Below are positions 25,434-56,184 of a stretch of 64,000 bases of DNA, piece by piece. Source of the DNA: a virus; IMG/VR virus record IMGVR_UViG_3300028388_004281, positions 4,204 through 68,203 of that record. One strand, given 5' to 3'. Numbering within the stretch: the stretch's first letter is position 1; each line of letters starts with the position of its first letter. The notes under the pieces were generated by a model. That model worked only from the letters and a program-made list of their open reading frames with translations, was not told where the DNA came from and made no database searches. The translations under genes and the position numbers were made by a program.

Positions 25434-25953
25434 CAAGCCAATAGAATCTGACGCATTTTGGTTGGATAGGTTGCGTAGGGCCAGAAGATCCGGATACATT
25501 GGCAATGCAATATTTGATGGCGTAGGGCGAAAGAGGTGGGCGGGCATAAATGCATATCGGAAAAGGTTGTTTTCCAAAGTAATAAAACCTGGCAGTACGG
25601 TCATTGATATCGGGTGTGGATATGGTGCATGTTATCCCCTAATGCCAAATGGTGTTCTGTATTACGGGATAGATATATCGCAAAGCCTAATCGCCGAAGC
25701 TATAAGGTTGTTTCCAACCGGCAATTTCAGCGTTTGCGATTGGAGAACACTGGATGTGCCACGTCACAGTTATGATTATTCTATCTTATGGTCAATGAAA
25801 GTTATGATATGCGATAACCTAGGAGACGAAGTATGGGATGATTTGGAGGCAAAAGCTCTTCATTTGTCCAAAATTGTTATCGTAGGGGAATTCGGAAACG
25901 GGCACGGCGAACATAAGATAATCTATAGGGAAAACATCGATGAAGATACATAG
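25417..25953 (+). CDS. Class I SAM methyltransferase (AT-rich insert)
   Basis: VIDIGCGYG, YYGIDIS. Confidence 0.85.
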   Translation: MPKKYDKPIESDAFWLDRLRRARRSGYIGNAIFDGVGRKRWAGINAYRKRLFSKVIKPGSTVIDIGCGYGACYPLMPNGVLYYGIDISQSLIAEAIRLFPTGNFSVCDWRTLDVPRHSYDYSILWSMKVMICDNLGDEVWDDLEAKALHLSKIVIVGEFGNGHGEHKIIYRENIDEDT

Positions 25954-27287: not shown

Positions 27288-28150
27288 AGCACTTACTGGT
27301 CTGCAGCAGCGTGAGCATTCCCGGAGCCGGTCGATACATCCCCGAGTGGCGGTATCTGGACCCGTCGGACTACCGCGTCGAGTTCAACGTCACGGAGGGC
27401 AAGCCGGACGCGATCGTGTGCATGAGCATCAGCAGCATGCTGCATGCCGAGTGCGCCGTCAAGCGCTGGCCGTACGTGCCGCTGTACGTGTACCACTGGG
27501 ACTGCTACTCGTGGGTGTGGACGAGGCCGAGGGCGGGCGAGTACGACTACCATCGCTACGGACGACTGCTCCAGCAGGCCCGCGAGGTGTGGGTGCCGAG
27601 CCTGTGCACCGGGCTGCAGGCGAACCAGTGGTGGGGCATCACCAACTGGCACCGCATCCTGTGCTCCGTGCCGTGGGTATGGGATTGCAGCGGCATAAGT
27701 GACGAGGGATACATACTGTGCCCCCTGCGGCGGCTGCCCGACAATTGGGTGGACGAATTCAGCGAGGCTTGCCAAGAGCTGGGGCTGCCTTTCGTGATGA
27801 CGTCGCATTCGCGCAGCTTCCAGGCGTATCAAGATCTGGTCGCTCGTTGTCGCTTCCTGGTATCGCACTATGAGGAAGCAAGCACCGGGGGCCTGACGCT
27901 GCTGGAGGCGTACCGACTGGGCAAGCCGTGCCTGATCAACGGGTCCGATTTAAACGGGGCCAAGGACTACTTCGGCGACCGGGCGGAGTACTTCATCTGC
28001 GGCGACCGCAAGAATTTCCGGCACAAGCTGAAGTACCTGTACCACCATCCGCCCCTGCTGCCTGCGGACCATCGCGAGTGGGTCGAAGCCAACTTCAACG
28101 ACCAGCGCATGCTGGCCGACATACTGGAGCGCATCCATGCGAACGCTTAG
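27284..28150 (+). CDS. Glycosyltransferase, GT4/GT-B
   Basis: E.STGGLTLLEA..LGKP. Confidence 0.75.
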   Translation: MKHLLVCSSVSIPGAGRYIPEWRYLDPSDYRVEFNVTEGKPDAIVCMSISSMLHAECAVKRWPYVPLYVYHWDCYSWVWTRPRAGEYDYHRYGRLLQQAREVWVPSLCTGLQANQWWGITNWHRILCSVPWVWDCSGISDEGYILCPLRRLPDNWVDEFSEACQELGLPFVMTSHSRSFQAYQDLVARCRFLVSHYEEASTGGLTLLEAYRLGKPCLINGSDLNGAKDYFGDRAEYFICGDRKNFRHKLKYLYHHPPLLPADHREWVEANFNDQRMLADILERIHANA

Positions 28151-28520
28151 CCAGCTGCAGGACCGTCTGAAGCATTATGACGACGCCCAGTACATCTACT
28201 GGACCAACGGGTCCCATGTCGTCTGGCACTTCGGCACGGGCGAGAACGTCGAGCTGTTGTTCCTGTATTCCGCCGATTCAGGAGACGGATCCAGATTGTG
28301 TTATGCCATGGCGAGCTGCATGATCGAGCAGGACCGTACGCCGTACCACAGCGTCTACGCGTTTCGCCGTGCGGACAACGACGATGGCAGGCGATTCTAT
28401 GACAGGTTGGGTTTCACGCAGGTCGATCTGGGGCCGTCGGTGTACCGTGTCGGGGGCACGACGCTGATGTGGATCACGTGGGCTGATCTGCTGATCAGGC
28501 TGAATCTAGTTTCTAGTTAG
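28137..28520 (+). CDS. GNAT-fold acetyltransferase
   Basis: G.GSRL and N..GRRFYDRLGF motifs. Confidence 0.7.
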   Translation: MRTLSQLQDRLKHYDDAQYIYWTNGSHVVWHFGTGENVELLFLYSADSGDGSRLCYAMASCMIEQDRTPYHSVYAFRRADNDDGRRFYDRLGFTQVDLGPSVYRVGGTTLMWITWADLLIRLNLVSS

Positions 28521-28529
28521 GAGCGAGAC

Positions 28530-29501
28530 ATGAGAGAAGTTCGAGGCACGCCGGTATGCGTGGTGGGAGGGGCCGGATTTCTCGGCAGCCACCTGGTGAA
28601 TCATTTGATCGATGATCGGGACTGCAAAGTAGTGGTGCTGGACAACCTGTGCGTGGGCAAGACAAAGCACGTGCACCCGGAGGCCGTGTTCATCCACCAC
28701 GACATCACGGGCAGCGAGGAGTTCGTGCGGCAGGTTCTGCAGGAGTACGAGGTGGAGTTCGTGTTCAACTACGCCGCGTGGCCGTACATACCCGACAGCT
28801 TCGAACGGCCGCTGCAGGTGTTCTCGGTCAATGCCACGGGGGCGATCAAGGTCATCAACGCCGCGCAGGACGCCGGATGCGCGGGGATTCTGCAGGTGTC
28901 GTCGGCCGAGATCTACGGCAGCTGCCGCGAGGGCAAGCTCACCGAGAGGTCGGAGGTGGCACCGCACAGTACCTACGGAGCGGCCAAGGCCGCGGTGGAC
29001 TACTACTGCCAGAGTGCATGGCGGGAGCGCGTGACGCCCGTGGTAGCTTTGCGGCAGTTCAACTGCGTGGGCGAGCGTGAGACGCATCCGTACATCATCC
29101 CAGAGATCGTCAGCCAGCTGCACGGCTACCACGACCAGACGCGGCCCAAGATCCGGCTGGGCAACAACTCGTACCGCGACTTCCTCTACGCGGGCGACGC
29201 GGTGCGTATGGCCGTGGAGCTGCTGGAGAAGGGAACGTTCGGCGAGGTCTACAACTTGGGTTCCGAGTACGGGTTGCAGATGTACGAGCTGGCCGAGACG
29301 ATCGGGCAGGTCATGGGATACCGGTCCGTGCTGATCGAGGAGGAGGCGGCACGCAAGCGGCCCTGGGAGATCTGGCACCTGCAGTCCGACAACTCCAAGC
29401 TCTACTCGACTATCCTGTCCAGGCCGAGGGTGTCGCTCACCGACGCCTTGCACCGCACGGTTCAATACTTCCGGGACAACGGCAACAGATGGGACTGGTG
29501 A
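28530..29501 (+). CDS. NAD-dependent NDP-sugar epimerase/4,6-dehydratase
   Basis: GGAGFLG, SSAEIYG, YGAAK, R.FN..G, RDF.Y. Confidence 0.9.
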   Translation: MREVRGTPVCVVGGAGFLGSHLVNHLIDDRDCKVVVLDNLCVGKTKHVHPEAVFIHHDITGSEEFVRQVLQEYEVEFVFNYAAWPYIPDSFERPLQVFSVNATGAIKVINAAQDAGCAGILQVSSAEIYGSCREGKLTERSEVAPHSTYGAAKAAVDYYCQSAWRERVTPVVALRQFNCVGERETHPYIIPEIVSQLHGYHDQTRPKIRLGNNSYRDFLYAGDAVRMAVELLEKGTFGEVYNLGSEYGLQMYELAETIGQVMGYRSVLIEEEAARKRPWEIWHLQSDNSKLYSTILSRPRVSLTDALHRTVQYFRDNGNRWDW

Positions 29502-29502
29502 C

Positions 29503-30474
29503 ATGCAACCGTTCGAGCAGCTGGAGTGTGAGTTCGCGGAGTTCGTGGGAGTAGGGCCCGAGCAGGTCGTGGCCTGCAGCAGCGGCACGACGGCGCTGCA
29601 CCTGGCGTTGGAGGCATTGGAGCTGCGCATGGGCAGCACGGTGCTGGTGCCGGAGTTCACCATGGTGGCCTGCGCACGAGCCGCGGTGATGGCGGGCCTG
29701 CGGCCGTCGTTCGTCGACTGCGGCGAGGATCTGCTGATGCGGCCGGATCTCGCGGCGCAGCGGATGGACTCCAACGTGAGCGCCGTGATGCCGGTGCACG
29801 TGTACGGCCGACGCTGCGACGTGGAGTCCATCGTCGACTGCACCGCACCGTTGGGGGCGGCCTTGGTCGAGGACTGCGCGGAGTTTCACGGGGCTCCCTT
29901 GAGCGGGCTGTCCGATGCCTACTGCTATTCGTTCTATGCCAACAAGATCATCGCTGGCGAGGAGGGCGGGGCCGTCGTGTTCGACCACAAGCCGCACGCT
30001 CGACTGGCCCGCTGCCTGCGGTGCCAAGGGTTCACCGACCGCCACGACTTCCTGCACATGCCCAGGGGCATCAACGGCAGGCTGAGCAACGCCAACGCCG
30101 AGCTGATTCTGGAGAGCCTGCGCTGCGTGGAAGAGAACTTGTCACGACGCCGGGATGTAGAGTACTGGTACGACGAGCTGGTGCCGGCCGAGTGGCGCAT
30201 GCCGTCCCGCGAGGCTCCGTGGGTGTACGACGTGCGGCTGCCGAACGACGTGGACGTGGAGGAGATCGTGGGGTTGCTGAACGAGCGCGGCATTGCGGCC
30301 CGAATGCCGTTCCGTCCCATGAGCGAGCAGCGGGAGTTCTACTCGCCTCGGTTCCCGGAGCTGGAGGCGTTCCGACAGTCGCTGTGCATGATGTACTTGC
30401 CCTTGCAACCGGAGATGCGGCATGCGGACGTGGAACGTATTGCGTACTGCCTCGAAAGACTAGTTACAAGCTAG
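29503..30474 (+). CDS. DegT/DnrJ/EryC1/StrS sugar aminotransferase (perosamine synthase-like)
   Basis: SSGTTALHLAL, PVHVYG, EDCAE, SFYANK (PLP Lys). Confidence 0.92.
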   Translation: MQPFEQLECEFAEFVGVGPEQVVACSSGTTALHLALEALELRMGSTVLVPEFTMVACARAAVMAGLRPSFVDCGEDLLMRPDLAAQRMDSNVSAVMPVHVYGRRCDVESIVDCTAPLGAALVEDCAEFHGAPLSGLSDAYCYSFYANKIIAGEEGGAVVFDHKPHARLARCLRCQGFTDRHDFLHMPRGINGRLSNANAELILESLRCVEENLSRRRDVEYWYDELVPAEWRMPSREAPWVYDVRLPNDVDVEEIVGLLNERGIAARMPFRPMSEQREFYSPRFPELEAFRQSLCMMYLPLQPEMRHADVERIAYCLERLVTS

Positions 30475-44068: not shown

Positions 44069-44643
44069 CGCTGAGACTACCAAGGATGCGATACCGCAGA
44101 TGGCGGCGGAGACCGGAGGTCTTGCTGTGTCCCAACATACCCAAGCCGATGCACGGGCTGGCACCTCGGGTGATACTGGGCAATAGCTGGTGGAATAAGA
44201 CACGGCGCGAGGCGTACAATAGCACTAATCGTCGCTGTGTAGCGTGTGGTGTGCATAAGTATCGGGCCAAGTCTAGGAAGTGGCTTGAAGGCCACGAGCT
44301 GTATCATACGGATTATCGGCTGGGACGGCTTACGTATCTGGAGACGGTACCGCTGTGCCACTTCTGTCACAACTACATCCACGACGGTAGGTTGCAGATG
44401 CTGTTGGAACAGGGTCTGGTACACCATCAGAAGTATGCTGCAATTATACAGCACGGAAATCGGGTGCTAGCGGAGGCCGGTATGCAGAGGCAGACTAGAA
44501 TGCAGCGGGAGGAGTATGTAGCCAGATTGTCGGTGATAGGAGAGCTAGCGGAGTGGAGCGAGTGGCGTCTGGTACTGTTCGGGAAGGAGTACCCGCCGTT
44601 GTATGCGAACGAGAATGAATGGAGACTTGCGCATGGCAGGTAG
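44065..44643 (+). CDS. HNH-like endonuclease family protein
   Basis: CVACG, LEGHE, LCHFCHNYIH. Confidence 0.7.
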   Translation: MTLRLPRMRYRRWRRRPEVLLCPNIPKPMHGLAPRVILGNSWWNKTRREAYNSTNRRCVACGVHKYRAKSRKWLEGHELYHTDYRLGRLTYLETVPLCHFCHNYIHDGRLQMLLEQGLVHHQKYAAIIQHGNRVLAEAGMQRQTRMQREEYVARLSVIGELAEWSEWRLVLFGKEYPPLYANENEWRLAHGR

Positions 44644-46645
44644 AATCGGCCTCGATACCGAGACCACCGGACTGGATATATCCCACGGAGCCAGGCCGTA
44701 CTTCGTAGGGGTATCGTACCGTGAGGGCAACGAGTTCATGACCATGTCGTGGTCGTGGAAGGTCGATCCGGTAACCCGACGGGTCCTGTACGATACGAAC
44801 GAGATGGAGGAGGTCCAGGATCTCCTCGATAGCGTGGACGAGATAGTGATACACAATGCGAAGTTCGACTTCCGGGCCCTGGACGCGGCGTTCAGGGACG
44901 TAGGGATGAATCTTCGGTGGGACTGGTCGAAGGTAAGGGATTCCCTAATTGCGAGCCATCTAGTTAATAGCATTCCCCCGCATAACCTGGCGACAATGTC
45001 TCTCGTGTATCTAGGTCTGGACACGGACAGGTTCGACAAGGACCTGAAGTCGGCATGCATGAAGGCCCGGAGGATCGCATCCAGGAAAGGGTGGAGGGTA
45101 TCGGGACCGGATCAGCCTGACATGCCAAGTGTCAAGGGTGAGGCATGGAAGATGGACGGATGGATCCCTGGTCAGCTGGCGGTCGAGGAGGGATATCCAC
45201 CCGATCATGAATGGATGACCGTGCTTGAAAGGTACTGCGAGGCCGATACCATCTCGTGCCTGGAACTCTACAGGGTATTGTCCGAGTCGATTGGTAGGAA
45301 CGGGCTTCGATCGATATACGACGAGAGAATGAAGGTCGTCCCGATAGTCGCCGGGATGGAGACCAACGGAGTATCCATAAGTCGGAGGAGACTGGAAAGG
45401 CAGCTCAATGAGTATAGGAAACAGTCGGAGGAACTGGGGGCCGTATGCACCGGAATAGCATCGGACAGGTACAGGTACGACCTGACCCTACCCAAGAGCG
45501 GCAATAACAAGTCACTACTGTCATTTATATTCGATACGATGGAACTCCCTGTGGTGAAGAAGTCCGGTAAGACCGGAGTACCGTCACTGGATCAGTCGGT
45601 CGTCGGGGAGTACCTGGCTACGCTACCGGAGGAGTCGGACGGATTCAGGTTCATGAGGTCACTGTCCGAGAAGAGGAGACGCGATACCGGGATATCATAC
45701 ATGGAGGGGTACAGAAGGTTCTGGATACCGCTAGACGGATCCGATGAGTGGTATACCCTCCATCCGTCACTGAACCCGACCGGGACCGGTACACTACGAT
45801 GGTCATCGTCGAACCCGAACGAGCAGAACATAAGCAAGAAGGAAGGGTTCAACCTACGCTACTGCTTCGGGCCGGCTCCGGGTCGTGAGTGGTGGTCCCT
45901 AGACTACAAGAACCTGGAGCTGAGGATACCGGCGTTCGAGTCCGACGAGACTGATCTGATCCATGTCTTCGAGCATCCGGATGATCCGCCGTACTTCGGG
46001 AGCTACCACCTGGTAGTAGCGGATCTGCTGTACCCGAGGGAGTTCCGTAGGTACGGGACAAGGTTCAAGGACAAGTTCATATCGACGAAGTACAAGTGGA
46101 TCAAGAACGGGAACTTCGCAGTAATCTACGGAGCGCAGAGGGAGACGGCCGACAGGGCGTACCATATTGACGGAGCGTACGATGCAATACGGAGTAGGTT
46201 CCCCAGGATAGCGGAGCTGAACGACAGGATGATATCGATGGCCGGAAGGACCGGGTACGTGGAAACGATTCCGGATCGATCGATTACCGACTCAGGCAAG
46301 GGATATCCGATAAGATGCCCTAGAGGGTATCGGGGACTGGTATCGCCTACGGTTCCGTTGAACTACCATGTCCAGTCGACTGCCATGTGGATAACGATGA
46401 AGGCCATGATTCGGTGCCAGGGATACCTGGATTCGATCGGGAGTAGGAACGAATACAGGATGGTCATGCAGGTCCACGATGAACTGGTATTCGACTTCCC
46501 GAGGAGGAGCGGAAGGGGTAACCTGCCGAAGGTCAGAAGGCTGGCCCGACTGATGGCCCTGGGAGGGGACGACGTGGGTATCCCGACGCCGGTAAGTATC
46601 GAGTACCATCCGAACGACTGGAGTACCGGGGAGTCGGTACATTAG
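44633..46645 (+). CDS. DNA polymerase family A with 3'-5' exonuclease
   Basis: DTETTG, HNAKFD, TLRWSSSNPN.QN, DYKNLELR, KNGNFAVIYG, QVHDEL. Confidence 0.95.
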   Translation: MAGRIGLDTETTGLDISHGARPYFVGVSYREGNEFMTMSWSWKVDPVTRRVLYDTNEMEEVQDLLDSVDEIVIHNAKFDFRALDAAFRDVGMNLRWDWSKVRDSLIASHLVNSIPPHNLATMSLVYLGLDTDRFDKDLKSACMKARRIASRKGWRVSGPDQPDMPSVKGEAWKMDGWIPGQLAVEEGYPPDHEWMTVLERYCEADTISCLELYRVLSESIGRNGLRSIYDERMKVVPIVAGMETNGVSISRRRLERQLNEYRKQSEELGAVCTGIASDRYRYDLTLPKSGNNKSLLSFIFDTMELPVVKKSGKTGVPSLDQSVVGEYLATLPEESDGFRFMRSLSEKRRRDTGISYMEGYRRFWIPLDGSDEWYTLHPSLNPTGTGTLRWSSSNPNEQNISKKEGFNLRYCFGPAPGREWWSLDYKNLELRIPAFESDETDLIHVFEHPDDPPYFGSYHLVVADLLYPREFRRYGTRFKDKFISTKYKWIKNGNFAVIYGAQRETADRAYHIDGAYDAIRSRFPRIAELNDRMISMAGRTGYVETIPDRSITDSGKGYPIRCPRGYRGLVSPTVPLNYHVQSTAMWITMKAMIRCQGYLDSIGSRNEYRMVMQVHDELVFDFPRRSGRGNLPKVRRLARLMALGGDDVGIPTPVSIEYHPNDWSTGESVH

Positions 46646-46695: not shown

Positions 46696-47220
46696 CTAGC
46701 CGTCGAAGGGCGCTCCCTCCAGCTTGGACTTCGCCCCCTTGGCGGTGAGGTAGGCCGAAAGCCCTTGGCCTTCGATCATTCCGACCGCGGCGTATCCGGC
46801 GGCCACGAGGCATCGGGGGTTGGAGTCGGCCTTCCCGCTCGTTCCTCTGAGAAGACCGTAGGTATCGAACCGGGTGTACTTGCACCTCCCGGCGAGGTCG
46901 TCGATGGACCGTGCGGAGGAGGCCTTCGTGGCTCCAAGCTTCCTCAGCATCTGGACGAGCTTCCGACGCCGGATACCGGGGGCCTCCGTCCCCATGGACC
47001 TGGACCGGCCGTTGGCGGTAGCCTCGGCCTTCGCCTTCACGGGGGCCGCCTTCTTCGTAGCCGTCTTCTTCGTAGCCGTCTTCTTCGTGGCCTTCTTCAC
47101 GGTAGCCTTTCCTGCAGGGACCTTCGCCTTGGGGGCGGTCTTCGTCCGCTTCCGGGGGCTCTCGACGGCCTGGGCGGTGGCAGGCTTCTCGACGGCGGTC
47201 TTGCTGGTGGTCTCGGTCAT
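46696..47220 (-). CDS. Histone H1-like Lys/Ala-rich protein with C-terminal winged-helix-like domain
   Basis: KKATKKTATKKTATKKAAPVKAKA repeats; AGGAG RBS; own terminator. Confidence 0.7.
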   Translation of the reverse strand: MTETTSKTAVEKPATAQAVESPRKRTKTAPKAKVPAGKATVKKATKKTATKKTATKKAAPVKAKAEATANGRSRSMGTEAPGIRRRKLVQMLRKLGATKASSARSIDDLAGRCKYTRFDTYGLLRGTSGKADSNPRCLVAAGYAAVGMIEGQGLSAYLTAKGAKSKLEGAPFDG

Positions 47221-47310
47221 TTCTTCGCTCCTGATTGAAGGTTGTCGTTTCCCCGGGAACATACCCGTGGTATTAGTAATAGTACACTACCGACCAGGAT
47301 TGTAAACCCC

Positions 47311-48231
47311 ATGCAGATGAAATCTAGGAGAAAATTCCTACCCCCTGTCCTCCTGGGTCTGGATGGAGGGGATCGGGAGGCGGATCCGCTCGACCCGGAG
47401 TACTACTCGGGGGCACGCCTGAGGCTCCTGAGCGGCCTGGACCGGGATAGGTACTTGGAGTCGTTCGGTAGGGATAACCTGCACCGTAGGCCGTCTCCGG
47501 GGTCCAGGGACCGATCCGCATGGGACCGGATATCGGGGAGGCTGGAAGGCAGAAGAGTCGTCGCCCTCGGGAGGCGTGCCGCCAGGGCGACCGGGGCCTC
47601 CGATATCTGGTTCCGGTGGACCGTAGCAGGAGGGATCGTGGTGTCCTCGATGCCGCATCCGAGCGGACTCAACCGGTGGTGGAACGACCCGAGGAACATG
47701 GATACGGCAGGAAGGTTCGTACGGACGTTGCTGGCACCATGCATCCACGTGGAGGGGCCAGACGGGTCCGGTAAGTCGACCTTGGTACCGAGGCTGGCCA
47801 ATAGACTGAACCTCAGGGGGGTACAGACGCAGGGCCCTCCGAGGTCGTGGAGTGAATGCCTAGGAAGAGTGGAACGCCGGATCATTCCTGGGGTCGTATG
47901 CGATAGATCGTCCGGACTGGTCAGCGAGCTGGTCTACGGTCCGGTCCTTCGTGGGGAAACGCTCGGTAAGGAGGAGTGGATATGGGATCTCGTGAAGGCC
48001 GTAAGAGGGTCGGTTGTATTCGTGTACTGCCGGCCTCCAATCGATTCCATGCAGATGGACTTCCGTCCAGATGAGGACCCGGTTCATGTCGGCGGAGTAG
48101 TAGCCCGCTATGGCAGGATAGTCGACAGGTACGACGAAGTGATGGACAGGATCGAGGCTATCGGAGGAACGGTGGTAAGATATGACAGAACGGTCATGGG
48201 ATTCGAGGAGCTGATCGAATGTGTGGAGTAG
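47311..48231 (+). CDS. UDG-like domain fused to dNMP kinase
   Basis: VALGR.AA and PHPSGLNRWWN, then EGPDGSGKST and DR..LVSELVYG. Confidence 0.75.
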   Translation: MQMKSRRKFLPPVLLGLDGGDREADPLDPEYYSGARLRLLSGLDRDRYLESFGRDNLHRRPSPGSRDRSAWDRISGRLEGRRVVALGRRAARATGASDIWFRWTVAGGIVVSSMPHPSGLNRWWNDPRNMDTAGRFVRTLLAPCIHVEGPDGSGKSTLVPRLANRLNLRGVQTQGPPRSWSECLGRVERRIIPGVVCDRSSGLVSELVYGPVLRGETLGKEEWIWDLVKAVRGSVVFVYCRPPIDSMQMDFRPDEDPVHVGGVVARYGRIVDRYDEVMDRIEAIGGTVVRYDRTVMGFEELIECVE

Positions 48232-49580
48232 TGGCGGTAGCCGGTCCGAACGCAGCGGGGATGGTCGATAGGCTGGAAGGCCCTACGGCAATGGATCATA
48301 GGGGGGTGAGATCCGGTATGAGGTATGGATCGAACTGGGCCATGAGGCACGTAAGACTGCCGATAGTCGGGGTCGGCGAGGAGCATGACCAACCTATGGC
48401 AAGGTCCGGATGGATCATAGGGTTCGTAGGGGAGCTAATGAACTTCCGTGAGTTACATGGGACGAGGTACGAGTGCGATGCCGAGCTTGCGGCGGACGTA
48501 TGGATAGATAACGGAATGGCAGGGTTCCGTCTATATGACGGATTCTGGCACCTGGTAGCCATCGAGGAGCGTACCGGAGACGTATACGTCGTAGCCGACT
48601 ACCTGGCCCAGAAGCCAGTCTACGTGAGGATAGGGGATGACTACTCGGCCGTAGCATCGGAGCCCGATACGCTGGCGGCGTTGTCCCCTACCATACCGGA
48701 CCGGATCTACCTATCGGCCGTAGTGAAGTGGGGGTACTGCCCGGAGACGAGAAGGACTCCGTACGTCGGGATATCGAGAGTGCTACCCGGCGAGGCCTGG
48801 CATATTCCGTACTACGGAAGGCCGGAGTCGACGGTCGTCGATCCGGTTGCTCCGATTCTCGGGGCGTCCCCTAGGGATCTCAGGCTGGCCGTAATAAGAT
48901 CGGTCACCAGAAGAATCCAGTCATCGGACGTACCGATCGGGTGCCTGGTAAGCGGCGGGGTAGATAGCTCGGTCGTGTATTCCCTCGCCGGGAGGAACTC
49001 GGACGTCCGGGGGTACCATATACCGAACGGGGAGGACGAATACGCCCAGGAGGTGGCTCCGGACGCCGTAAGGGTGGATCCGAGCCTGGTCCCCCTCCAC
49101 GAGGCGGCGGATTGGATGCAGGAGCCGATCGATCTAGGGTCACTGGTTCCGCAGGCGTGCATGTCGGCGTCGGTAAGGGCCGTGGGAGGGGAGGTGGTGT
49201 GTCTGACCGGGGACGGAGCCGACGAGCTGTTCGGCGGGTACGGAAGGGCAGGGAGGTACGACAGCCAGGCCAGTGACGTCTGGCAGGAGCTTGTGGCATG
49301 GCATCTTCCGAGGCTGGACAGGATCATGATGCGGAACCTGATCGAGGTACGGAGTCCGTTCCTGGGGAGGGAGGTAGTCAGGATCGCTCTCGGGATTCCC
49401 TGGAGGGAGAGGACCTCGAAGGGGTTCCTGAAGGAGGCGTTCCGTGGGCTAGTGTCGGATAGGATAGTGGATAGACCGAAGGTTCCATTGAAGACCGGCG
49501 ATGTAGAGTCGGATCGGGAAGGCAGAAGCCTGGACCTGGTAAGTCGTTTCATTAAGAAGGAGTGGGGGATACCCGAATGA
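48219..49580 (+). CDS. Asparagine synthetase B-like glutamine amidotransferase
   Basis: MCG (Ntn Cys), HRG, H.RL.IV, SGGVDSS, TGDGADELFGGY, EVRSPFL. Confidence 0.9.
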   Translation: MCGVVAVAGPNAAGMVDRLEGPTAMDHRGVRSGMRYGSNWAMRHVRLPIVGVGEEHDQPMARSGWIIGFVGELMNFRELHGTRYECDAELAADVWIDNGMAGFRLYDGFWHLVAIEERTGDVYVVADYLAQKPVYVRIGDDYSAVASEPDTLAALSPTIPDRIYLSAVVKWGYCPETRRTPYVGISRVLPGEAWHIPYYGRPESTVVDPVAPILGASPRDLRLAVIRSVTRRIQSSDVPIGCLVSGGVDSSVVYSLAGRNSDVRGYHIPNGEDEYAQEVAPDAVRVDPSLVPLHEAADWMQEPIDLGSLVPQACMSASVRAVGGEVVCLTGDGADELFGGYGRAGRYDSQASDVWQELVAWHLPRLDRIMMRNLIEVRSPFLGREVVRIALGIPWRERTSKGFLKEAFRGLVSDRIVDRPKVPLKTGDVESDREGRSLDLVSRFIKKEWGIPE

Positions 49581-51868
49581 AGGCCAGACCTGGAGTGCTT
49601 GGAATTACCAGCGGCATCGGATCGATGCTGGTAGGTGCAAGGCAGGCCCGTTTCAAGGTAGCGGGGAATATCGAGTGGAGAGGGTACTACCATACAGGAA
49701 CGTTCGAGAGGAACTTCGACGGAGCGTTTATGACGAAGCGGATCGAGGACCTCCCGGGTAGTACCCTGGATTCCCTTCGGGGGATCGATCTGGTGATGGG
49801 TCATCCCGAGTGCGGGGCCTGGTCCCAGATGCAAGGATGCAATAATTTCAGGGAGCAGGCCACGAGGATAGTGAACCCGAGGAATCCATGCGACATACCC
49901 TTGTTCGTGAGTATGGTATCCAAAGTCAGACCGAGGTTCTTCGCGATGGACGACCTACCGAAGTCGCTCGGGGCATACACGATGGAGGACTACGCGAAGG
50001 CGCTTCCCGACTACGACCTCTTTCCAGAGTGGGTAAGCAACTACCACTACGGGAATATCCAGAGACGGAGGGAAAGAATGTTCATGATCGGCTCGCTCAG
50101 GGGTGAGAGATGGGTATTCATCCCTGGGGAGGAGGACCATGACCTGACATTGTCATCGGTGCTGGTAGACCTTCCGGTGTGGCCGGAGGCCGGAGCGATA
50201 CCGAACCACGATCCGCATAACGAGACCGAGGAATGCGGGCGCGGACTGCATATGAACTATCCGTGGCATAGGCCGACGTGGGGCGAGTTCAGGGAATGGT
50301 TCGAGAGGGTGGATGAAGGCCAGTCGTTCCGGTACTACTCGCCGCATGCTCCCGAGGGGGAGACGAAGGTGAAGCCCGGATGGTATAAGCAGTACTGGAA
50401 CGGAACATGCGCCGTTCTGGACGGAGGATCGGGCCATGTCCATCCGCTTCGGAACCTGCCGTTCACCGTAAGGGAGAGGGCCAGAATCCAGGGATTCCCG
50501 GACTGGTTCCTGTTCCATGGTACCAGACTGAACGATAGTGGTGAATGGATCCACGAGAGGAATATCGATATCATTAAGCAGACCGGCAAGGCCATGCCGA
50601 TACAGTTCAATCGGTACCTGGCAAGGCAGATCATGGCGCATATCAAAGGTCGGCAGTTCAGGTCGTCGGGTAGACGACTAATTAAGCCGCATCCTATGGT
50701 AACGGAGGCGAAGGAGTGGTACTGCTCGAACGTCGGGTATTCCGACCAGGAGGCGGCATGCAAGGTATGCTGGATCGGCAGAGAATGCGGAATCCGGGAC
50801 GGTCATATGGTCCAGGTCGGTACCCCGAAGGCAGAACCACCGAAGGAGGAGGTACCGAAGGCCGGTACGTTCAGGAAGTCCGGTCGGAAACGGAAGGCCC
50901 GGTCGGTGAAGGTGGAGCCGGCGGAGATACGGAGAACTCCGATGGAGGTGATCAATGTCGAAAGGTCCGAGGATCCAAACGGAACTCCGGTGGTGGACGA
51001 GGTCCATATCCGTGACGGGGTAGTTCCGGATGACTACCATTGCGACTGCAAGTACTGTACCCGATCGATCGGCGAGCTGAGGGCTCCGGACGGGTCCTAC
51101 TACTCCAGGAACGAAAGGAGGAGGTACTACGGAAGCATGGAGAAGGGCGGAAGTGGCCATGTAGCGAAGACCCCGTTGCACATAGCCCGGTGGGCGATCC
51201 AGAGGTACACGAGGCCTGGAGACTGGGTACTGGATCCGACCGCTGGCGCCGGGACTACGCTAGTCGAGGCCCTGATTCAGGACAGGAACACGGTAGGGGT
51301 CGAGTTGCAGTTCAAGAAGATACTGCTGGATAACGTATCACGGTTCGTATCGGACTCGGCTCGGGCCGTGGTAGGGATCGGGGATGCAAGGTGGATCGAC
51401 GGGGTACTCGACGACTTGGATTTCAAACTCTCTTTGGTAGTAAACAATCCTCCGTACTCCGGAGACGAGCACTGGACTACGTACAATGTTCCGGAGGACT
51501 CCCCCGAGAATACATGGTCGACGACCCTCAGTTCGTACGACAGGAAGCTGGCGAACATAGCCTTCCTGAAGGAGAACGATGAGTACTGGAGAACGCTCGG
51601 GTCGATATACAGGAAGTGTACCAGGAGGCTGAAGGTAGGAGGCCGATTCGTTATCGGGGTCAAGGATCAGATGAGAAGTAAGAGGCCTGACATGCTCCAT
51701 ATGAAGGTCGCGGAGGTTCTCGATAGGATACCGGGCCTGAAGTTCGAGGGCACGGCATTCCTGAAGCACTATCCGAAGACCCTGCATCTTAACTCGTACC
51801 CGAAGCTGTACGGCGTCGATCCTCCGTACTACCAGACGATAGTCGTTTTCAGAAAGGTAAGGGGATAG
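49577..51868 (+). CDS. Divergent C5-cytosine MTase fused to N4/N6 amino-MTase
   Basis: ITSGIG, GHPEC, Q.R.R, TVRERARIQGFPD; C-terminal LDPTAGAGTT and NNPPY. Confidence 0.8.
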   Translation: MKARPGVLGITSGIGSMLVGARQARFKVAGNIEWRGYYHTGTFERNFDGAFMTKRIEDLPGSTLDSLRGIDLVMGHPECGAWSQMQGCNNFREQATRIVNPRNPCDIPLFVSMVSKVRPRFFAMDDLPKSLGAYTMEDYAKALPDYDLFPEWVSNYHYGNIQRRRERMFMIGSLRGERWVFIPGEEDHDLTLSSVLVDLPVWPEAGAIPNHDPHNETEECGRGLHMNYPWHRPTWGEFREWFERVDEGQSFRYYSPHAPEGETKVKPGWYKQYWNGTCAVLDGGSGHVHPLRNLPFTVRERARIQGFPDWFLFHGTRLNDSGEWIHERNIDIIKQTGKAMPIQFNRYLARQIMAHIKGRQFRSSGRRLIKPHPMVTEAKEWYCSNVGYSDQEAACKVCWIGRECGIRDGHMVQVGTPKAEPPKEEVPKAGTFRKSGRKRKARSVKVEPAEIRRTPMEVINVERSEDPNGTPVVDEVHIRDGVVPDDYHCDCKYCTRSIGELRAPDGSYYSRNERRRYYGSMEKGGSGHVAKTPLHIARWAIQRYTRPGDWVLDPTAGAGTTLVEALIQDRNTVGVELQFKKILLDNVSRFVSDSARAVVGIGDARWIDGVLDDLDFKLSLVVNNPPYSGDEHWTTYNVPEDSPENTWSTTLSSYDRKLANIAFLKENDEYWRTLGSIYRKCTRRLKVGGRFVIGVKDQMRSKRPDMLHMKVAEVLDRIPGLKFEGTAFLKHYPKTLHLNSYPKLYGVDPPYYQTIVVFRKVRG

Positions 51869-51869
51869 T

Positions 51870-52262
51870 ATGGATGTCCATGGGAAGTATTACAATCCTG
51901 GGGGGAAGGAACGAACCGGTAAACGAAGACCGAATCGGAAGGAGGATACATGCCTCTGCTCTGCAATCGAGGAGGACTGCATAGCGCACCTATCGGTTGC
52001 CCTATCGAATGGGGATGGGAAGGTCGCAAGAAGAATCAGTTCAGTTCTGCACCTGTGCTGCTCCTTGATTAAGAATGCCCAGGAGGGAGGGACGAATCCG
52101 AAGCGACAGAGGGCCCGAAAGTATATTGTGAAGCAGTTCGGGATGATAATGGAATACGCAGCGAAAGGTGGACTGGGGCTATCGGAGATCGGTAGCAAGT
52201 TCGGAAATACCCAGCATATAAGGCACTTTATCGATCAGGAGATTGGGAATGCTGGTAGTTAA
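51870..52262 (+). CDS. Hypothetical protein
   Basis: Fills operon gap. Confidence 0.45.
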   Translation: MDVHGKYYNPGGKERTGKRRPNRKEDTCLCSAIEEDCIAHLSVALSNGDGKVARRISSVLHLCCSLIKNAQEGGTNPKRQRARKYIVKQFGMIMEYAAKGGLGLSEIGSKFGNTQHIRHFIDQEIGNAGS

Positions 52263-53094
52263 CGGATCTAGTTTCAGTGATATCTACATGTCACTAGAGG
52301 GGATGATAGTAACTGCGGATCGGGTTGGTAATCCAAGGTGGCAGGGGATGGATGTATCGGGAAGGCCGGGATCCGATCTCCATGAACTAGTGAACATTGT
52401 ATTCGAGGTTCCGTTAGGCGGAATCGAGGACCTCGGCCACTGGAGGAATGACATAGGCCCGAACCTTCCGTGGGCCGATGATCATTTCGACGAGCGTGTC
52501 GGCGGCGAGCCTCTGAACCCCGGAGTGCAGTGGCGTAACTGGCCATGGGGCAGAAGCGCGGATAAGTTCAGGGACAATGATGAACTGTTCAATCACACGT
52601 ACATGGAACGGCTGTGGCCTAGGTACGCGAGGAGAACGCTAGGGGGTAGGCTAGACCTAGCGGAGCACGGGGCCCGTAGAACCACGGATGGGGCCAGGCC
52701 GCGTAGGGGGATAGGGTGGGAGTACGGCGACCTTCAGAGCGTGGTGGATCTCCTCGTGAAGGAGCCTGGAACCCGCCAGGCGTGGATCCCGTTATTCCAT
52801 CCCGAGGATACGGGGTACGGAGACGGCGGGAGGAAGCCCTGCACGCTAGGGTACCAGTTCATGGTAAGGAACGGATCGATCGGGATATGGTATCCGCTGA
52901 GGGCCTGCGATCTTACGCACCACTGGAAGGACGACTGCTACCTGGCAGTCAGGCTTCTTCTGTGGGTACTTGGAATGTGCAGGGAGGCCGATCACGGATA
53001 TTGGGACTCGGTAGTCCCTGGAGGCTATGCCATGCATATGACATCTCTTCACGTATTCGAGAACGACTGGAGGGCACTGTGTCGCAGTTCGTAA
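52249..53094 (+). CDS. Thymidylate synthase-fold enzyme, dCMP hydroxymethylase/methylase-like
   Basis: TRQA, PCT, QF..R, RACD...DD, SLHVF; Asp at the ThyA N177 position. Confidence 0.8.
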   Translation: MLVVNGSSFSDIYMSLEGMIVTADRVGNPRWQGMDVSGRPGSDLHELVNIVFEVPLGGIEDLGHWRNDIGPNLPWADDHFDERVGGEPLNPGVQWRNWPWGRSADKFRDNDELFNHTYMERLWPRYARRTLGGRLDLAEHGARRTTDGARPRRGIGWEYGDLQSVVDLLVKEPGTRQAWIPLFHPEDTGYGDGGRKPCTLGYQFMVRNGSIGIWYPLRACDLTHHWKDDCYLAVRLLLWVLGMCREADHGYWDSVVPGGYAMHMTSLHVFENDWRALCRSS

Positions 53095-53480
53095 GCGTCG
53101 GTAGATTCCATCGGAAGTTCGGCCTAAGATCGGCGGACGATTGTCCCGATCCGAGACTAGTCGATGACGGAGTGTTCCTGTTCCGATACCAGTTTCTGAT
53201 GGAGGAAATGCAGGAGCTGATCCATTCGCACAGGAACGGAGACGTCGCCGGCGTGGCCGACGCCTTGGTCGATCTGGTCTACGTGGCTTTAGGTACGGCC
53301 CACCTCTACGGAATACCGTTCGACGAGGTATTCGACGAGGTCCAGAGGGCAAATATGTCTAAGGAGAGATCGACCGGAGACGACGACGGTCGGTCGAAGC
53401 GCGGGAGCGGACTCGATGTCGTGAAGCCGGATGGATGGACCCCACCGGATATCGAATCGATCATAGGGAGATATACCTAA
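53079..53480 (+). CDS. MazG-like nucleotide pyrophosphohydrolase
   Basis: EE..EL, DALVDLVYVALG, V..ANMSK, KP.GW..P. Confidence 0.88.
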   Translation: MSQFVSVGRFHRKFGLRSADDCPDPRLVDDGVFLFRYQFLMEEMQELIHSHRNGDVAGVADALVDLVYVALGTAHLYGIPFDEVFDEVQRANMSKERSTGDDDGRSKRGSGLDVVKPDGWTPPDIESIIGRYT

Positions 53481-53968
53481 TGAACTCGGTAGTCTGGATG
53501 ATAGGTGAGCCTGAAGGCCCCAAGGCGCAACGGATCCGCGAGAGACTGATCAGGTACGTAAGGTTCGCCCGGGACCTGGAGTCATTATCTACATGCAGAC
53601 GAAGGTCGGTCGGGTGCGTGATAGCAAGCGACGACCTGACGTCGGTAGCGTCAATAGGATACAACGGCCAGCCTAGAGGCACCCCCAACGACGGATGCTC
53701 GGGGGAGGTCGGATCGTGCGGATGCATCCATGCCGAGGCGAATGCCTTGGTCAAGATACCGGGATGGTACAGCGATACGACGATGTTGGTTACATGCTCT
53801 CCGTGCGCCCACTGCTCGGGACTTATCGTGAACAGCGGAAAGGTATCGGTAGTACTGTACGATAGTACGTATCGGGTATCGGATGGGCTGTATATACTAG
53901 GCCTGGCCGGAGTGGCGGTATTCAGGACCCCTGAAATTCTAGGGAGCGGGAAAGGCGACGACGTATGA
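53480..53968 (+). CDS. dCMP deaminase
   Basis: STC.RR.VG, GYNG, HAEANA, PC..C. Confidence 0.92.
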   Translation: MNSVVWMIGEPEGPKAQRIRERLIRYVRFARDLESLSTCRRRSVGCVIASDDLTSVASIGYNGQPRGTPNDGCSGEVGSCGCIHAEANALVKIPGWYSDTTMLVTCSPCAHCSGLIVNSGKVSVVLYDSTYRVSDGLYILGLAGVAVFRTPEILGSGKGDDV

Positions 53969-56184
53969 AGGATCTACCTAATGGACTGAGGCCGTATTCG
54001 TTCCACGGCCTCGACCTCGATTTCGGAGGAGGGGATGAAGCTACATGCGACTGCCCGTGGTGCGGAAGGGTGAACAAGTTTAGCATCAACATGGATACTG
54101 GACAGTGGCATTGCTGGACATGTTCCGAAGGCAATGACAATGGGGGAGGCAATATACACACGTTCATGCAAGTGCTGTGGAGGTATAGCAGCGAGGCGAC
54201 GACATCTAAGGACTACCAGACATTTGCTGAGGATCGCAAGCTGTTGTATCCCGAGACGCTCGTGGAGTGGAGCGTAGTTAAGTCCTGCGTCACTGGCGAC
54301 TGGCTCGTACCGGGATACAACCCGGACGGTAAGATGACCACCCTGTATCGTTACGTCTACTCGTACTCCAAGAAACGGTGGCTGCTACTCACTACTCCGA
54401 CGCTAGGCCACAGGCTGTTCGGTGGCAATCTGTACGATCCAAGCAAGCCTACTGTGTATGTTACGGAAGGACCGTGGGATGCCATGTCGCTGTGGGAGGT
54501 CGTGAGGCGGGCCAAGCTGGACGATAATGGACGGTTGGTGCTTACGGCTAGTCAGTCGTCTAGCGTAGGTTCTGCTGTGAACGTGTTGGGTATACCAGGC
54601 TGCATGACGTTCGCCGACTCTTGGCATAGGTTGTTTGGGGGTAGGACCGTGGTGCTGTTGCTGGACAACGACCACCCTACACGGAACCCCAAGACGGGTA
54701 AGCTAGTTGCTCCGGCATCTCGCGTAGGCACGAGACGCATAGCAGAACGGTTGGGCAAGGCAGACCACCCACCTGACTCCGTATCGTTCTGTGCGTGGGG
54801 TGCTCCGTCTAGGATGTACAGCGAGGATCTGCCAGCAGGCTACGACGTGCGCGACCATCTTACGGCAGAAGGCAGCGGCGTGTCGGAGAGGGTCAGGTCG
54901 CTGAGTTCTCTGATAGACATGGTCGTGCCGGCTCCCGAGGATTGGTTCAAGCCGAGCAAGGCTGGATCCAACGGCAGCGATGCCATGACGCTGGGTACTT
55001 GCACGGAGTACCGTAGACTCGTAACGTGTTGGCGTAAGGCGCTGCGATGGACGTCCGGGCTAGACTGCGCGTTGTCGGTAATGCTGGCCAGCATCGCTAG
55101 CACGAAGGCCGTGGGAGACCAGCTGTGGGTCAAGATCATAGGACCTGCTGCCTGTGGCAAGAGTACATTGTGCGAGGCAGTGAGCACCAACAAGCAGTAC
55201 GTGCTGGCTAAGAGCACGATCCGTGGGTTCCACAGCGGGTTCGGCGATGGAGAGGAGGACTGTAGTCTGTTGTCCATGCTCTACGGGCGCACGTTGGTCA
55301 CGAAGGACGGTGACACGCTTATCCAATCGCCTAATCTGGGACAGATACTTAGCGAGGCACGGGACGTCTACGACAGTGTGAGCCGTACGCACTATCGCAA
55401 CCGTAACAGTCGAGACTACAGTGGTGTGCGTATGACGTGGATACTGTGCGGCACGAGTTCTCTGCGGTGTATCGACAGCAGCGAGCTAGGCGAGCGGTTC
55501 CTGGACTGTGTTATCATGGACGGCATTGACGATGAGCTAGAGGACGACATCCTATGGCGAGTAGTCAACCGTGCCGATCGGAACCTAGCGATCGAAGCAG
55601 ACGGCAAGCCAGAGACCCACTACGAGCCGGAGCTGGTAGAGGCTATGGCGGCTACCGGAGGCTATGTGCAGTATCTGCGAGAGAACGCCCGCGACCTATT
55701 GGAGACGACGGAGTTCTCGGACAACGCCAAACGACGCTGCGCTAGGCTCGGGAAGTTTGTAGCCTACATGCGTGCCAGACCTAGTAAGCATCAGGACGAG
55801 AGCGCCGAGCGGGAGTTTAGCACACGACTGGCATCACAGCTTATACGGCTATCTAAGTGTATGGCAGTAGTGATGAACCGCACTAGTGTAGATGAGGACG
55901 TGATGGCTAGGGTGCACAAGGTGGCATATGATACATCAAGGGGCCACACCTACGACATATGCAAGTATCTATACGATACGGACGGGGCTGAGCTACGTGC
56001 CGTAGCGCTGAACACCGCACTTGCAGAGAGCAGGGTCAAGGAGCTACTGAGATTCATGAGACAGATAGGAGCACTACGGCTGCATAGTGCCAAGGTACAG
56101 GGAGTGGTGAAGCGACGGTGGGTACTGTCGGATTACATGAGACGATTGTTCGATGAGGTTGAACAACCCCCTACCCTTACTTAG
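53965..56184 (+). CDS. Primase-helicase (Zn finger, TOPRIM, AAA+ ATPase)
   Basis: CPWC...CWTC, TEGPWD, DND, GPAACGKST, LGERF. Confidence 0.8.
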   Translation: MKDLPNGLRPYSFHGLDLDFGGGDEATCDCPWCGRVNKFSINMDTGQWHCWTCSEGNDNGGGNIHTFMQVLWRYSSEATTSKDYQTFAEDRKLLYPETLVEWSVVKSCVTGDWLVPGYNPDGKMTTLYRYVYSYSKKRWLLLTTPTLGHRLFGGNLYDPSKPTVYVTEGPWDAMSLWEVVRRAKLDDNGRLVLTASQSSSVGSAVNVLGIPGCMTFADSWHRLFGGRTVVLLLDNDHPTRNPKTGKLVAPASRVGTRRIAERLGKADHPPDSVSFCAWGAPSRMYSEDLPAGYDVRDHLTAEGSGVSERVRSLSSLIDMVVPAPEDWFKPSKAGSNGSDAMTLGTCTEYRRLVTCWRKALRWTSGLDCALSVMLASIASTKAVGDQLWVKIIGPAACGKSTLCEAVSTNKQYVLAKSTIRGFHSGFGDGEEDCSLLSMLYGRTLVTKDGDTLIQSPNLGQILSEARDVYDSVSRTHYRNRNSRDYSGVRMTWILCGTSSLRCIDSSELGERFLDCVIMDGIDDELEDDILWRVVNRADRNLAIEADGKPETHYEPELVEAMAATGGYVQYLRENARDLLETTEFSDNAKRRCARLGKFVAYMRARPSKHQDESAEREFSTRLASQLIRLSKCMAVVMNRTSVDEDVMARVHKVAYDTSRGHTYDICKYLYDTDGAELRAVALNTALAESRVKELLRFMRQIGALRLHSAKVQGVVKRRWVLSDYMRRLFDEVEQPPTLT

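Follow-up and report, generated by a model that had tools for sequence, protein, structure and literature searches.

Phage pathways known so far place hydroxymethyl, hydroxy, methyl, carbamoyloxymethyl, or carboxymethyl groups on cytosine. Hypermodified bases of phages determine whether restriction, CRISPR, and other defenses that target DNA succeed, and they have been a source of epigenetic-sequencing tools. Here, we describe an operon (47311-56184, plus strand) in a viral genome available as the complete 68,203-bp IMG/VR record IMGVR_UViG_3300028388_004281, which has direct terminal repeats. The operon encodes a thymidylate synthase (TS)-fold enzyme together with an AsnB-like amidotransferase, and we read it as a candidate cytosine-replacement pathway. 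Coordinates refer to the window, by which we mean the whole 64,000-nucleotide stretch that was analyzed (bases 4204-68203 of the record).

A few active-site residues of TS homologs report on substrate and product. According to two published studies, Asp in place of Asn177 (numbering of E. coli ThyA) indicates a cytosine substrate, on the basis of mutagenesis and of the MetaGPA association analysis (PMC13326640, PMC8670742). Positions 143 and 173 lie within 6 Å of C5; Leu143 goes with methyl products and Asp or Glu143 with hydroxymethyl products, while Asn in place of Asp169 identifies 5-hydroxy-dCMP synthases, which depend on flavin (PMC13326640). The MetaGPA data also show that TS homologs on modified contigs mostly have Asp177, and that PRA-PH and dCMP-deaminase domains accompany TS homologs, often in a manner specific to viral contigs with modified cytosine (PMC8670742).

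The sole literature precedent that we found for an AsnB-family enzyme in DNA modification is the CmoX/CmoY system of phage S-B43 (PMC12783734). CmoX is a C5-methyltransferase (C5-MTase) homolog that installs 5-carboxymethylcytosine on DNA with carboxy-S-adenosylmethionine (carboxy-SAM) from CmoA, and its Arg350 holds the carboxymethyl carboxylate. Host CmoA can substitute in E. coli. CmoY, an AsnB homolog, ligates glycine to 5-carboxymethylcytosine, which yields 5-glycyl-carboxymethylcytosine. The paper also proposes, as a prediction only, that one cluster of ligases, equipped with a glutaminase domain, works with ammonia. In a search that covered few subscription journals and no supplements, we found no paper on a pairing of TS homologs with AsnB, and the same restricted coverage returned no paper on 5-aminomethyl-, carbamoylmethyl-, or carboxamido-cytosine.

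The TS-like enzyme and its AsnB-like partner

Judged by its gene neighborhoods, the AsnB-like enzyme belongs with the TS-like enzyme and not with a methyltransferase. A profile made from 23 AsnB-like relatives matched 272 IMG/VR contigs, whereas a single-sequence search of IMG/VR with the AsnB-like protein gave no match. We kept 80 loci from the profile search and counted co-occurring genes by tblastn with the window proteins and by clustering of open reading frames (ORFs). Both methods place a TS-like gene in 71 of the 80 loci. By tblastn, MazG is found in 48 loci, an NPPY-motif MTase in 29, and the C5-MTase-like gene in 17. The clustering places a deaminase gene in 68 loci, usually directly after the AsnB-like gene; its clusters draw on 80 sources for AsnB, 72 for the TS-like protein (71 loci plus the window), 69 for the deaminase, and 49 for MazG. 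The nine loci without a TS-like gene (L009, L014, L017, L028, L032, L036, L037, L043, and L060) are all on contigs that break off towards the expected position of the TS gene in their clade. From these comparisons, with 71 loci for the TS-like gene vs. 17 for the C5-MTase-like gene, we place the AsnB-like enzyme with the TS-like one. A preliminary description of this DNA, made from the letters alone, had already coupled the two enzymes, and the neighborhood survey bears this out: the two genes are usually adjacent. It had also assigned them a supporting set, and MazG/PRA-PH, dCMP deaminase, and P-loop kinase genes do recur with the pair.

The commonest gene order is TS, AsnB, and deaminase, all adjacent and lying within replication modules of the T4 type (UvsX, DnaB-like helicase, and PolB). 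The clade of the window has UDG-like, AsnB, MTase(s), TS, MazG, and deaminase genes, in that order. Since the cassette occurs both on T4-like genomes and on PolA phages such as that of the window, it moves as a unit. It is widespread, with at least 272 IMG/VR contigs and two unrelated phage backbones, almost exclusively among uncultured viruses. No cultured phage in a collection of 50,697 records has the cassette, so the base that it makes could have escaped notice.

The TS-like enzyme appears to act on a cytosine nucleotide. Its gene (52249-53094, plus strand; longest ORF from 52243) matches the thymidylate synthase family phrog_160 (E 3e-21) and no family in Pfam. The AlphaFold2 (AF2) model (pLDDT 83) has the TS fold, and its top Protein Data Bank (PDB) matches are enzymes of cytosine nucleotides: the CMP hydroxymethylase MilA, the HY126 dCMP hydroxylase, and the T4 dCMP hydroxymethylase (dCH). 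MilA is also the best PDB match by sequence (E 4e-4). We aligned 72 family members, including the window protein, with E. coli ThyA and T4 gp42. The segment RACDLTHHWKDD (residues 220-231; 52900-52935, plus strand) holds Asp169, His173, and Asp177 in ThyA numbering. In the MAFFT alignment, its last Asp falls at ThyA Asn177 and gp42 Asp179, just where the preliminary description had put it, and all 72 sequences have Asp there. By the criteria published for other TS homologs, this suggests dCMP as substrate.

The product is another matter. Cys146, Arg126, Arg166, Asp169, and His207 are each present in 72/72 sequences, as are Arg143 and His173, and position 172 is Arg, Lys, or His in 71/72. In terms of aligned residues, the combination of Arg143 and His173 with a retained Asp169 fits no published TS product signature. 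The acidic residue that marks hydroxymethylases at position 143, Asp in T4 gp42, is Arg throughout the family. The family is not one of 5-hydroxy-dCMP synthases, as Asp169 is kept and the diagnostic Asn169 is absent. Nor is it canonical ThyA: PF00303 has no match in this protein or elsewhere in the genome, even at E≤0.1, and Asp replaces Asn177. ThyA and ThyX models match nothing in the genome, which rejects either family as the source of dTMP and leaves the host or the cassette to supply it.

The TS signature is also found in cultured phages that lack an AsnB-like gene, for example Brevundimonas phage Strzyga (48% identity) and a Manatee Spring siphovirus (54%). There, the neighbors of the TS-like gene are a kinase and an NTP pyrophosphatase, and the siphovirus has ThyX and a dCMP deaminase as well. 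The upstream neighbor in Strzyga, which encodes a 279-aa protein (L002:7165-8004), overlaps the start of the TS-like gene. It shows no similarity to the TS-like profile (probability 0.2%), and it may be an alternative partner of the TS-like enzyme. The ESM Atlas contains a cluster of 51 viral proteins in which a TS domain is fused to a dCMP-deaminase domain, which is independent support for the two activities working together in viruses.

In line with the preliminary description, the AsnB-like protein is not a housekeeping asparagine synthetase. The gene (48219-49580, plus strand) encodes an N-terminal nucleophile (Ntn) domain with a catalytic Cys and a PP-loop adenylating domain (Asn_synthase E 4e-34, GATase_6 E 2e-11, and GATase_7). 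The protein thus has the traits of the superfamily (PF00733 with an Ntn GATase domain, Cys nucleophile, SGGxDS, and a two-domain fold). Against the asparagine-synthase equivalog TIGR01536, it scores 151.9 bits for a cut-off of 267.1. This score, and the fact that close relatives lie nearly all on viral contigs or on contigs of metagenome-assembled genomes (MAGs), are the grounds for the distinction. Metagenomes hold at least 120 relatives at 45-59% identity. Among 50,697 phage records, the only relative, at 26% identity, is from Streptomyces phage TurkishDelight, whose genome is present in two records. With one genome for each of 185,579 species, relatives at 45% identity or more are found on just two MAG contigs. 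One of these, RPRB01000006.1 from a Myxococcaceae MAG (L138), is 75,335 bp long, as is the IMG/VR contig 3300009168_000004 (L016), and both carry the same AsnB-like gene. RPRB01000006.1 is probably of phage origin and was binned with a bacterium; any hint of a host is weak at most.

Both half-reactions of AsnB are probably kept, since the N-terminal Cys1 and the PP-loop motif SGGxDS are present in all 80 family members that we aligned with E. coli AsnB. Other positions have changed. Glu348 is replaced by Asp and Asp384 by His in 80/80, and Lys376 by Val or Ile in 71/80; we take Lys376 and Asp384 to be aspartate-binding positions of AsnB. Arg49, Asn74, and Asp98 presumably form the class II glutamine site. 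Position 74 is Val in 74/80, Arg49 is kept in 24/80, and Asp98 in 77/80; the window protein has Arg49 and Asp98, with Val at 74. The AF2 model (pLDDT 89) best matches AsnB (1ct9), human ASNS, the hydroxyamidotransferase TsnB9, beta-lactam synthetase, and carbapenam synthetase in the PDB. All five are known to adenylate a carboxylate. In a search for longer, fused AsnB-like proteins, we found no TS-AsnB or kinase-AsnB fusion, only two distant AsnB-glycosyltransferase fusions.

The C5-MTase-like domain represents a distinct family whose chemistry is probably other than plain C5 methylation, to judge from its motifs. It is the N-terminal part (49577-50770; DNA_methylase E 5e-16) of a fusion gene (49577-51868, plus strand; longest ORF from 49562). 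Motif IV reads GHPEC for GxPPC, motif VI MDDLP for ENV, and motif X TGKAMP for GN. These motifs are conserved among 18 members including the window protein, with motif X visible in 17 (one is trimmed). In terms of PF00145, Glu-Cys, Asp-Asp-Leu, and Gly-Lys thus stand in place of Pro-Cys, Glu-Asn-Val, and Gly-Asn; only the Cys and the motif VIII arginines are retained. Lys343 of the window protein aligns with Arg350 of CmoX (SpCmoX). When we reversed the search, a profile of this family found 49 loci in IMG/VR, with the AsnB-like gene in 44, the TS-like gene in 43, and the deaminase gene in 41. The five loci without AsnB (L120, L122, L126, L131, and L133) are all cut at contig ends. Thus, the cassette occurs without the MTase-like gene but the reverse is not seen, which fits either an optional downstream tailoring enzyme dedicated to what the cassette makes or a back-up route to the same base.

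Some cassettes carry further genes. A truncated UDP-glucose-dehydrogenase-like gene (cluster 24) is present in 12/80 loci, confined to a single subclade, within TS-AsnB-deaminase cassettes of T4-like contigs. The encoded proteins have 273-394 aa (mostly ~273-281), and the catalytic-Cys motif pattern is found in 7/12 (six GGACFPKD and one GYCLPKD). The gene follows that of the deaminase directly or nearly so; in L036 (1865-2695) it overlaps the stop codon of the deaminase gene, to which it is translationally coupled. The L036 protein, the sole member scanned, lacks a Pfam C-terminal UDP-binding domain. Enzymes of this type oxidize CH2OH to COOH. A cytidylyltransferase-like gene (cluster 23; phrog_7878, E 1.5e-35) precedes the TS-like gene in L082 (477-917) and 11 other loci, directly so in most of the 12, and belongs largely to the same subclade. 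In 16 loci of the far clade, the deaminase gene is followed by a phage-encoded gene for ribosomal protein S21 (cluster 17; L083:2501-2758 and 15 other loci).

Proposed pathway and alternatives

On balance, we conclude with moderate confidence that the operon encodes a T4-type pathway that replaces cytosine before replication and includes an additional, so far undescribed chemical step. The phage DNA probably carries an undescribed nitrogen-bearing cytosine. Gene content, active-site residues, folds, and co-occurrence are observed; from them we infer every chemical step and the level, nucleotide or DNA, at which each enzyme acts. The MazG/PRA-PH enzyme would convert dCTP to dCMP and so clear the canonical dNTP. 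The TS-fold enzyme, with its catalytic Cys and Asp177, would then attack C6 of dCMP and install a substituent at C5. Using ATP and its PP-loop, the AsnB-fold enzyme would activate an oxygen function on this substituent, to be replaced or capped with nitrogen delivered by the Cys1 Ntn domain. The P-loop kinase would take the modified dNMP towards the triphosphate for incorporation by the phage polymerase, while the dCMP-family deaminase would supply the dU/dT branch. The C5-MTase-like enzyme, and possibly the NPPY MTase, could perform a later, optional tailoring of the modified base in DNA. The interpretation offered in the preliminary description is supported in every part accessible to sequence comparison. 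If it is true, there is a new base and a new enzymatic step, in which an AsnB-fold amidotransferase works with a TS-fold enzyme.

What the C5 group might be can be narrowed only tentatively. The possibility that we favor, though taken by itself it is somewhat unlikely, is that it carries or becomes a carboxyl group from which the AsnB-like enzyme makes a carboxamide, giving a 5-carbamoyl-type cytosine. Four weak hints, independent of one another, point to such a carboxyl handle: the carboxylate substrates of the closest solved AsnB relatives; the invariant cationic residues that adjoin C5 in the TS-like family; the Lys in the cassette-dependent MTase-like family at the carboxylate-holding position of CmoX; and the UDP-glucose-dehydrogenase-like gene in 12/80 loci. 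A fuller version is more doubtful. In it, the TS family with Arg143, His173, and Asp177 would itself install a carboxyl-bearing group on dCMP, its C5 carbanion trapping, for example, CO2 or a 2-oxo or aldehydo acid. ATP-dependent amidation by the AsnB-fold enzyme would pull this step forward, and a 5-carboxamide-type cytosine would replace cytosine. In DNA, this base would be recognized and further modified by the HPEC/DDL/TGK “C5-methyltransferase”, an enzyme put to a new use.

Several observations weigh against the pathway as we propose it. The window's operon contains no oxidase that would turn hydroxymethyl into carboxyl, and the dehydrogenase-like gene is limited to one subclade and absent from the window. 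Arg143 matches neither the hydroxymethylase (Asp/Glu) nor the methylase (Leu) signature, so the product of the TS-like enzyme itself cannot be predicted from signatures; the family has retained Asp169 and Trp83, which bind the pterin, in keeping with ordinary one-carbon transfer. The TS-like family has other partners as well, and the occurrence of its signature in cultured phages without AsnB means that the TS-like enzyme needs no AsnB-like partner. The glutaminase site is partly degenerate, and the nitrogen donor may be other than glutamine. Finally, the window's clade has its AsnB-like gene immediately before that for the C5-MTase-like protein, the arrangement of CmoY and CmoX in S-B43.

A first alternative would have the TS-like enzyme make 5-hydroxymethyl-dCMP, the CH2OH group of which is activated with ATP by the AsnB-like enzyme and displaced by ammonia. 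The resulting 5-aminomethyl-dC would resemble the aminated thymidines of other phages in being cationic. This follows the same logic as the 5-carbamoyloxymethylcytosine system, where a TS homolog with Asp177, PRA-PH, and a deaminase are joined by a tailoring enzyme, and as thymidine hypermodification, where activation of 5-hydroxymethyluracil precedes substitution by an amine (PMC8670742; PMC8989533, PMC11472151). The TS-like family is common to phages with other partner genes, which fits a generic handle such as hydroxymethyl. However, we regard this route as improbable. The family has Arg143 and not the Asp or Glu of the hydroxymethylases covered by the published signature (PMC13326640), and our literature search found no paper under the names of 5-aminomethylcytosine. 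Adenylation of an alcohol is not known to us for any enzyme of the AsnB fold.

A post-replicative system of the CmoX/CmoY type is also improbable. Here, the MTase-like domain would use carboxy-SAM of the host to place carboxymethylcytosine in DNA, and this base would be amidated to 5-carbamoylmethyl-cytosine by the AsnB-like enzyme, with ammonia derived from glutamine. The genes for the TS-like protein, MazG, and the deaminase would then form a nucleotide module of their own. The gene order just mentioned agrees with this, as do the precedent of CmoY and the predicted ammonia-using ligases (PMC12783734). The same source reports that an engineered M.MpeI with the change N374K accepts carboxy-SAM; this change is at the site of CmoX Arg350, with which Lys343 aligns. 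Furthermore, the best match of the AsnB-like protein among phage records, TurkishDelight gp124, is encoded between two MTases and near ParB genes. Yet 63 of the 80 AsnB-like loci have no C5-MTase-like gene in their flanks while 71 have the TS-like gene, and tblastn with CmoA, CmoX, and CmoY of S-B43 and with the MTases and ParB of TurkishDelight found a match in none of the 80 loci. The complete 68-kb genome has no CmoA (TIGR00740), and the motif SPPC, by which the published CmoX set is defined, reads HPEC, with DDL for ENV. A base already substituted at C5 before replication would also leave a C5 transferase little substrate.

The third alternative, which we find just as doubtful as the second, is amination of the ring carbonyl. 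PP-loop enzymes and some AsnB-family amidotransferases exchange a carbonyl oxygen for an amidine nitrogen, and the chemistry would resemble that of GMP synthetase or of the acetamidino-sugar amidotransferases (amide to amidine). The deaminase would turn dCMP into dUMP, the TS-like enzyme would add the C5 group, and the AsnB-like enzyme would adenylate O4 of the 5-substituted dUMP to give the matching dCMP derivative. No carboxyl group is required; most loci have the TS, AsnB, and deaminase genes side by side, and TS-deaminase fusion proteins exist in viruses. In contrast, the closest solved relatives of the AsnB-like model are all known to act on carboxylates, and the route is roundabout given that TS homologs that modify dCMP directly exist. 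Asp177 in 72/72 sequences argues that the TS-like enzyme binds cytosine and not uracil, by the criterion given in the two studies (PMC13326640, PMC8670742).

Ordinary auxiliary metabolism (dTMP or 5-methyl-dCMP from the TS-like enzyme, pool balancing by deaminase and MazG, anti-restriction MTases, and an AsnB-like enzyme that makes asparagine or amidates a non-nucleotide substrate such as a sugar acid) is very improbable: nucleotide-metabolism genes often adjoin phage polymerases, the window also has a sugar-pathway cluster at 19-30.5 kb, and distant AsnB homologs fused to glycosyltransferases exist, but the TS-AsnB adjacency is kept across unrelated phage backbones, the AsnB-like score is below the equivalog cut-off, the presumed aspartate-binding positions are changed (Lys376 to Val or Ile in 71/80, Asp384 to His in 80/80), close AsnB-like relatives are nearly absent from cellular genomes, and the TS-like family, with its Asp177, is too divergent for PF00303.

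Layout of the operon and of the genome around it

Scans with Pfam, PHROGs, and NCBIfam agree with the gene order and families given after PolA in the preliminary description, and both these scans and inspection of the junctions show eight plus-strand genes packed head to tail between 47311 and 56184. At each junction, from the kinase gene through the primase gene, stop and start codons overlap or abut, with overlaps of the ATGA type. This fits a single operon, as had been proposed, although the description had omitted one member, a 130-aa ORF between the MTase and TS-like genes (51870-52262, plus strand). The 130-aa ORF has no family match in Pfam, PHROGs, or NCBIfam and no counterpart in the recurrent gene clusters of the related loci. 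Conversely, hidden Markov models of nine recurrent neighbor clusters (6, 8, 12, 17, 18, 20, 24, 39, and 45) have no counterpart among the window ORFs at 40-58 kb.

Upstream lies the gene for the family A DNA polymerase PolA (44603-46645, plus strand; DNA_pol_A E 8e-32). The sole minus-strand gene between PolA and the operon (46696-47262) encodes a 188-aa protein with no Pfam or PHROGs match, rich in Lys and Ala; its N-terminal half is Lys/Ala/Thr-rich and histone-H1-like. At the other end, the MazG/PRA-PH-type all-alpha NTP pyrophosphohydrolase (53079-53480, plus strand; PRA-PH E 4.7e-17, phrog_671 E 1e-25) has a GTG start at 53079 with GGAGG upstream. It is followed by the zinc deaminase of the dCMP-deaminase family (53480-53968, plus strand; dCMP_cyt_deam_1 E 5e-17, phrog_174 E 7e-33). 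A primase-helicase-like gene (53965-56184, plus strand; phrog_47 E 8e-13, phrog_239 E 1e-9) overlaps the deaminase gene by ATGA and is translationally coupled to it. The true starts are likely 49577 for the MTase, 52249 for the TS-like enzyme, 53079 for MazG, and 53480 for the deaminase.

The first gene of the operon (47311-48231, plus strand) encodes a fusion of a domain resembling the uracil-DNA glycosylase (UDG) superfamily with a domain resembling P-loop dNMP or thymidylate kinases. Its longest ORF starts with TTG at 47242, and homologs align from about the ATG at 47311. In the 47242 ORF, the UDG-like domain covers about residues 35-164 and the kinase-like domain about 166-325. Of the UDG-kinase fusion named in the preliminary description, the kinase half stands (phrog_761 thymidylate kinase, E 5e-10), while the UDG label is weak: the N-terminal half matches phrog_12275 (E 2.7e-14) and scores 20.2 bits with Pfam UDG, below the cut-off of 24.3. 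The motif HPSG is conserved in six relatives of the UDG-like domain. A profile of these six gave no match to PDB sequences, and the GLxNP(H/Y)-like N-terminal motif of the relatives reads GLDGGD in the window. Among the loci compared, the fusion is unique to the window; in relatives, the UDG-like protein is encoded by a separate gene of 130-155 aa followed by a DUF6378-like gene.

The C5/NPPY fusion is likewise unique to the window among the loci compared, where all 29 NPPY-like ORFs are separate genes. Its amino-MTase domain (51060-51868, plus strand; N6_N4_Mtase E 2.5e-14) carries an NNPPY motif, and motif I precedes motif IV. Its best PDB sequence matches are 2zie, N4-cytosine MTases, and M.MboIIA.

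Further genes of the window are noted here for completeness. A sugar-pathway cluster (19059-30474, plus strand) adjoins the tail genes. It includes a sugar C-methyltransferase (20392-21774), two NDP-sugar 4,6-dehydratase/epimerase genes (21453-22712 and 28530-29501), two GT-B glycosyltransferases (22694-23704 and 23596-24597), a class I MTase (26622-27287), and a DegT/DnrJ/EryC1 aminotransferase (29503-30474), all on the plus strand. The cluster could serve glycosylation of virion proteins or of DNA. Downstream of the operon, a plus-strand gene (57051-57557) encodes a pentapeptide-repeat protein, with nine copies of a 15-nt period at 57115-57320. Across 57027-58605, the sequence GCGAAGGGAGGGGxTGATGA and variants of it recur at gene junctions, as a ribosome-binding site with a start codon that overlaps the preceding stop. 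From this recurring sequence, the small ORFs of the region derive a common acidic C-terminal tail of the GGDDE type.

Comparison with described systems

The system of Synechococcus phage S-B43 shares with the window an AsnB-family, ATP-dependent enzyme encoded directly before a C5-MTase homolog, and a cationic residue, Lys343 in the window, at the motif X position of CmoX Arg350. There are also differences. The window has GHPEC for GSPPC, DDL for ENV, and Lys for Arg350; the 80 related loci have no BLAST-level similarity to CmoX or CmoY; and the AsnB-like family follows the TS-like gene (71/80) and not the MTase-like gene (17/80). The complete 68,203-bp record has no match to the CmoA model TIGR00740 at E≤0.001. 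We therefore reject membership in the CmoA/CmoX/CmoY group on account of the absent CmoA, HPEC instead of SPPC, and Lys instead of Arg350.

E. coli AsnB and its solved relatives share the two-domain fold, the N-terminal Cys, and SGGxDS with the AsnB-like protein. However, the latter is about 100 residues shorter than E. coli AsnB, is changed at positions 348, 384, 376, and 74, and scores below the family cut-off.

Among TS homologs, the 5-hydroxy-dCMP synthases of RB69, DLP3, and HY126 (PMC13326640) resemble the TS-like enzyme in fold and in Asp177, and the structures of HY126 and related enzymes (9iqc and 9iqu) are among its top fold matches. They differ by the D169N change, in place of which the TS-like family has Asp169 in 72/72 sequences. 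The 5-carbamoyloxymethylcytosine cassette found by MetaGPA shares the core neighbors: it also combines a TS homolog, PRA-PH, and a dCMP-family deaminase with one ATP-using tailoring enzyme (PMC8670742). There, the tailoring enzyme is a TobZ-type carbamoyltransferase, whereas that of the window has the AsnB fold, and the TS-like protein of the window falls below PF00303 altogether.

The T4 pathway for hydroxymethyl-dC (gp42 dCMP hydroxymethylase, gp56 dCTPase, gp1 dNMP kinase, and cd dCMP deaminase) shares with the window a TS-fold enzyme that has the catalytic Cys and, at ThyA position 177, Asp; structures of T4 dCH rank among the closest in fold. In both, the genes beside those for replication include a pyrophosphatase, a P-loop kinase, and a dCMP deaminase, a likeness at the level of families. 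Unlike T4, the window has Arg143 where gp42 has Asp, a pyrophosphatase of the MazG/PRA-PH type and not of the gp56 type, and no glucosyltransferase in the operon, to which it adds a conserved AsnB-fold amidotransferase. Pre-replicative hypermodification of pyrimidines built on a TS homolog is thus of a known kind. The amidotransferase step, the TS family with Arg143 and His173, and the HPEC/DDL/TGK MTase-like family are undescribed, and with this last, distinct C5-MTase-like family the cassette points to a second unexplored enzyme.

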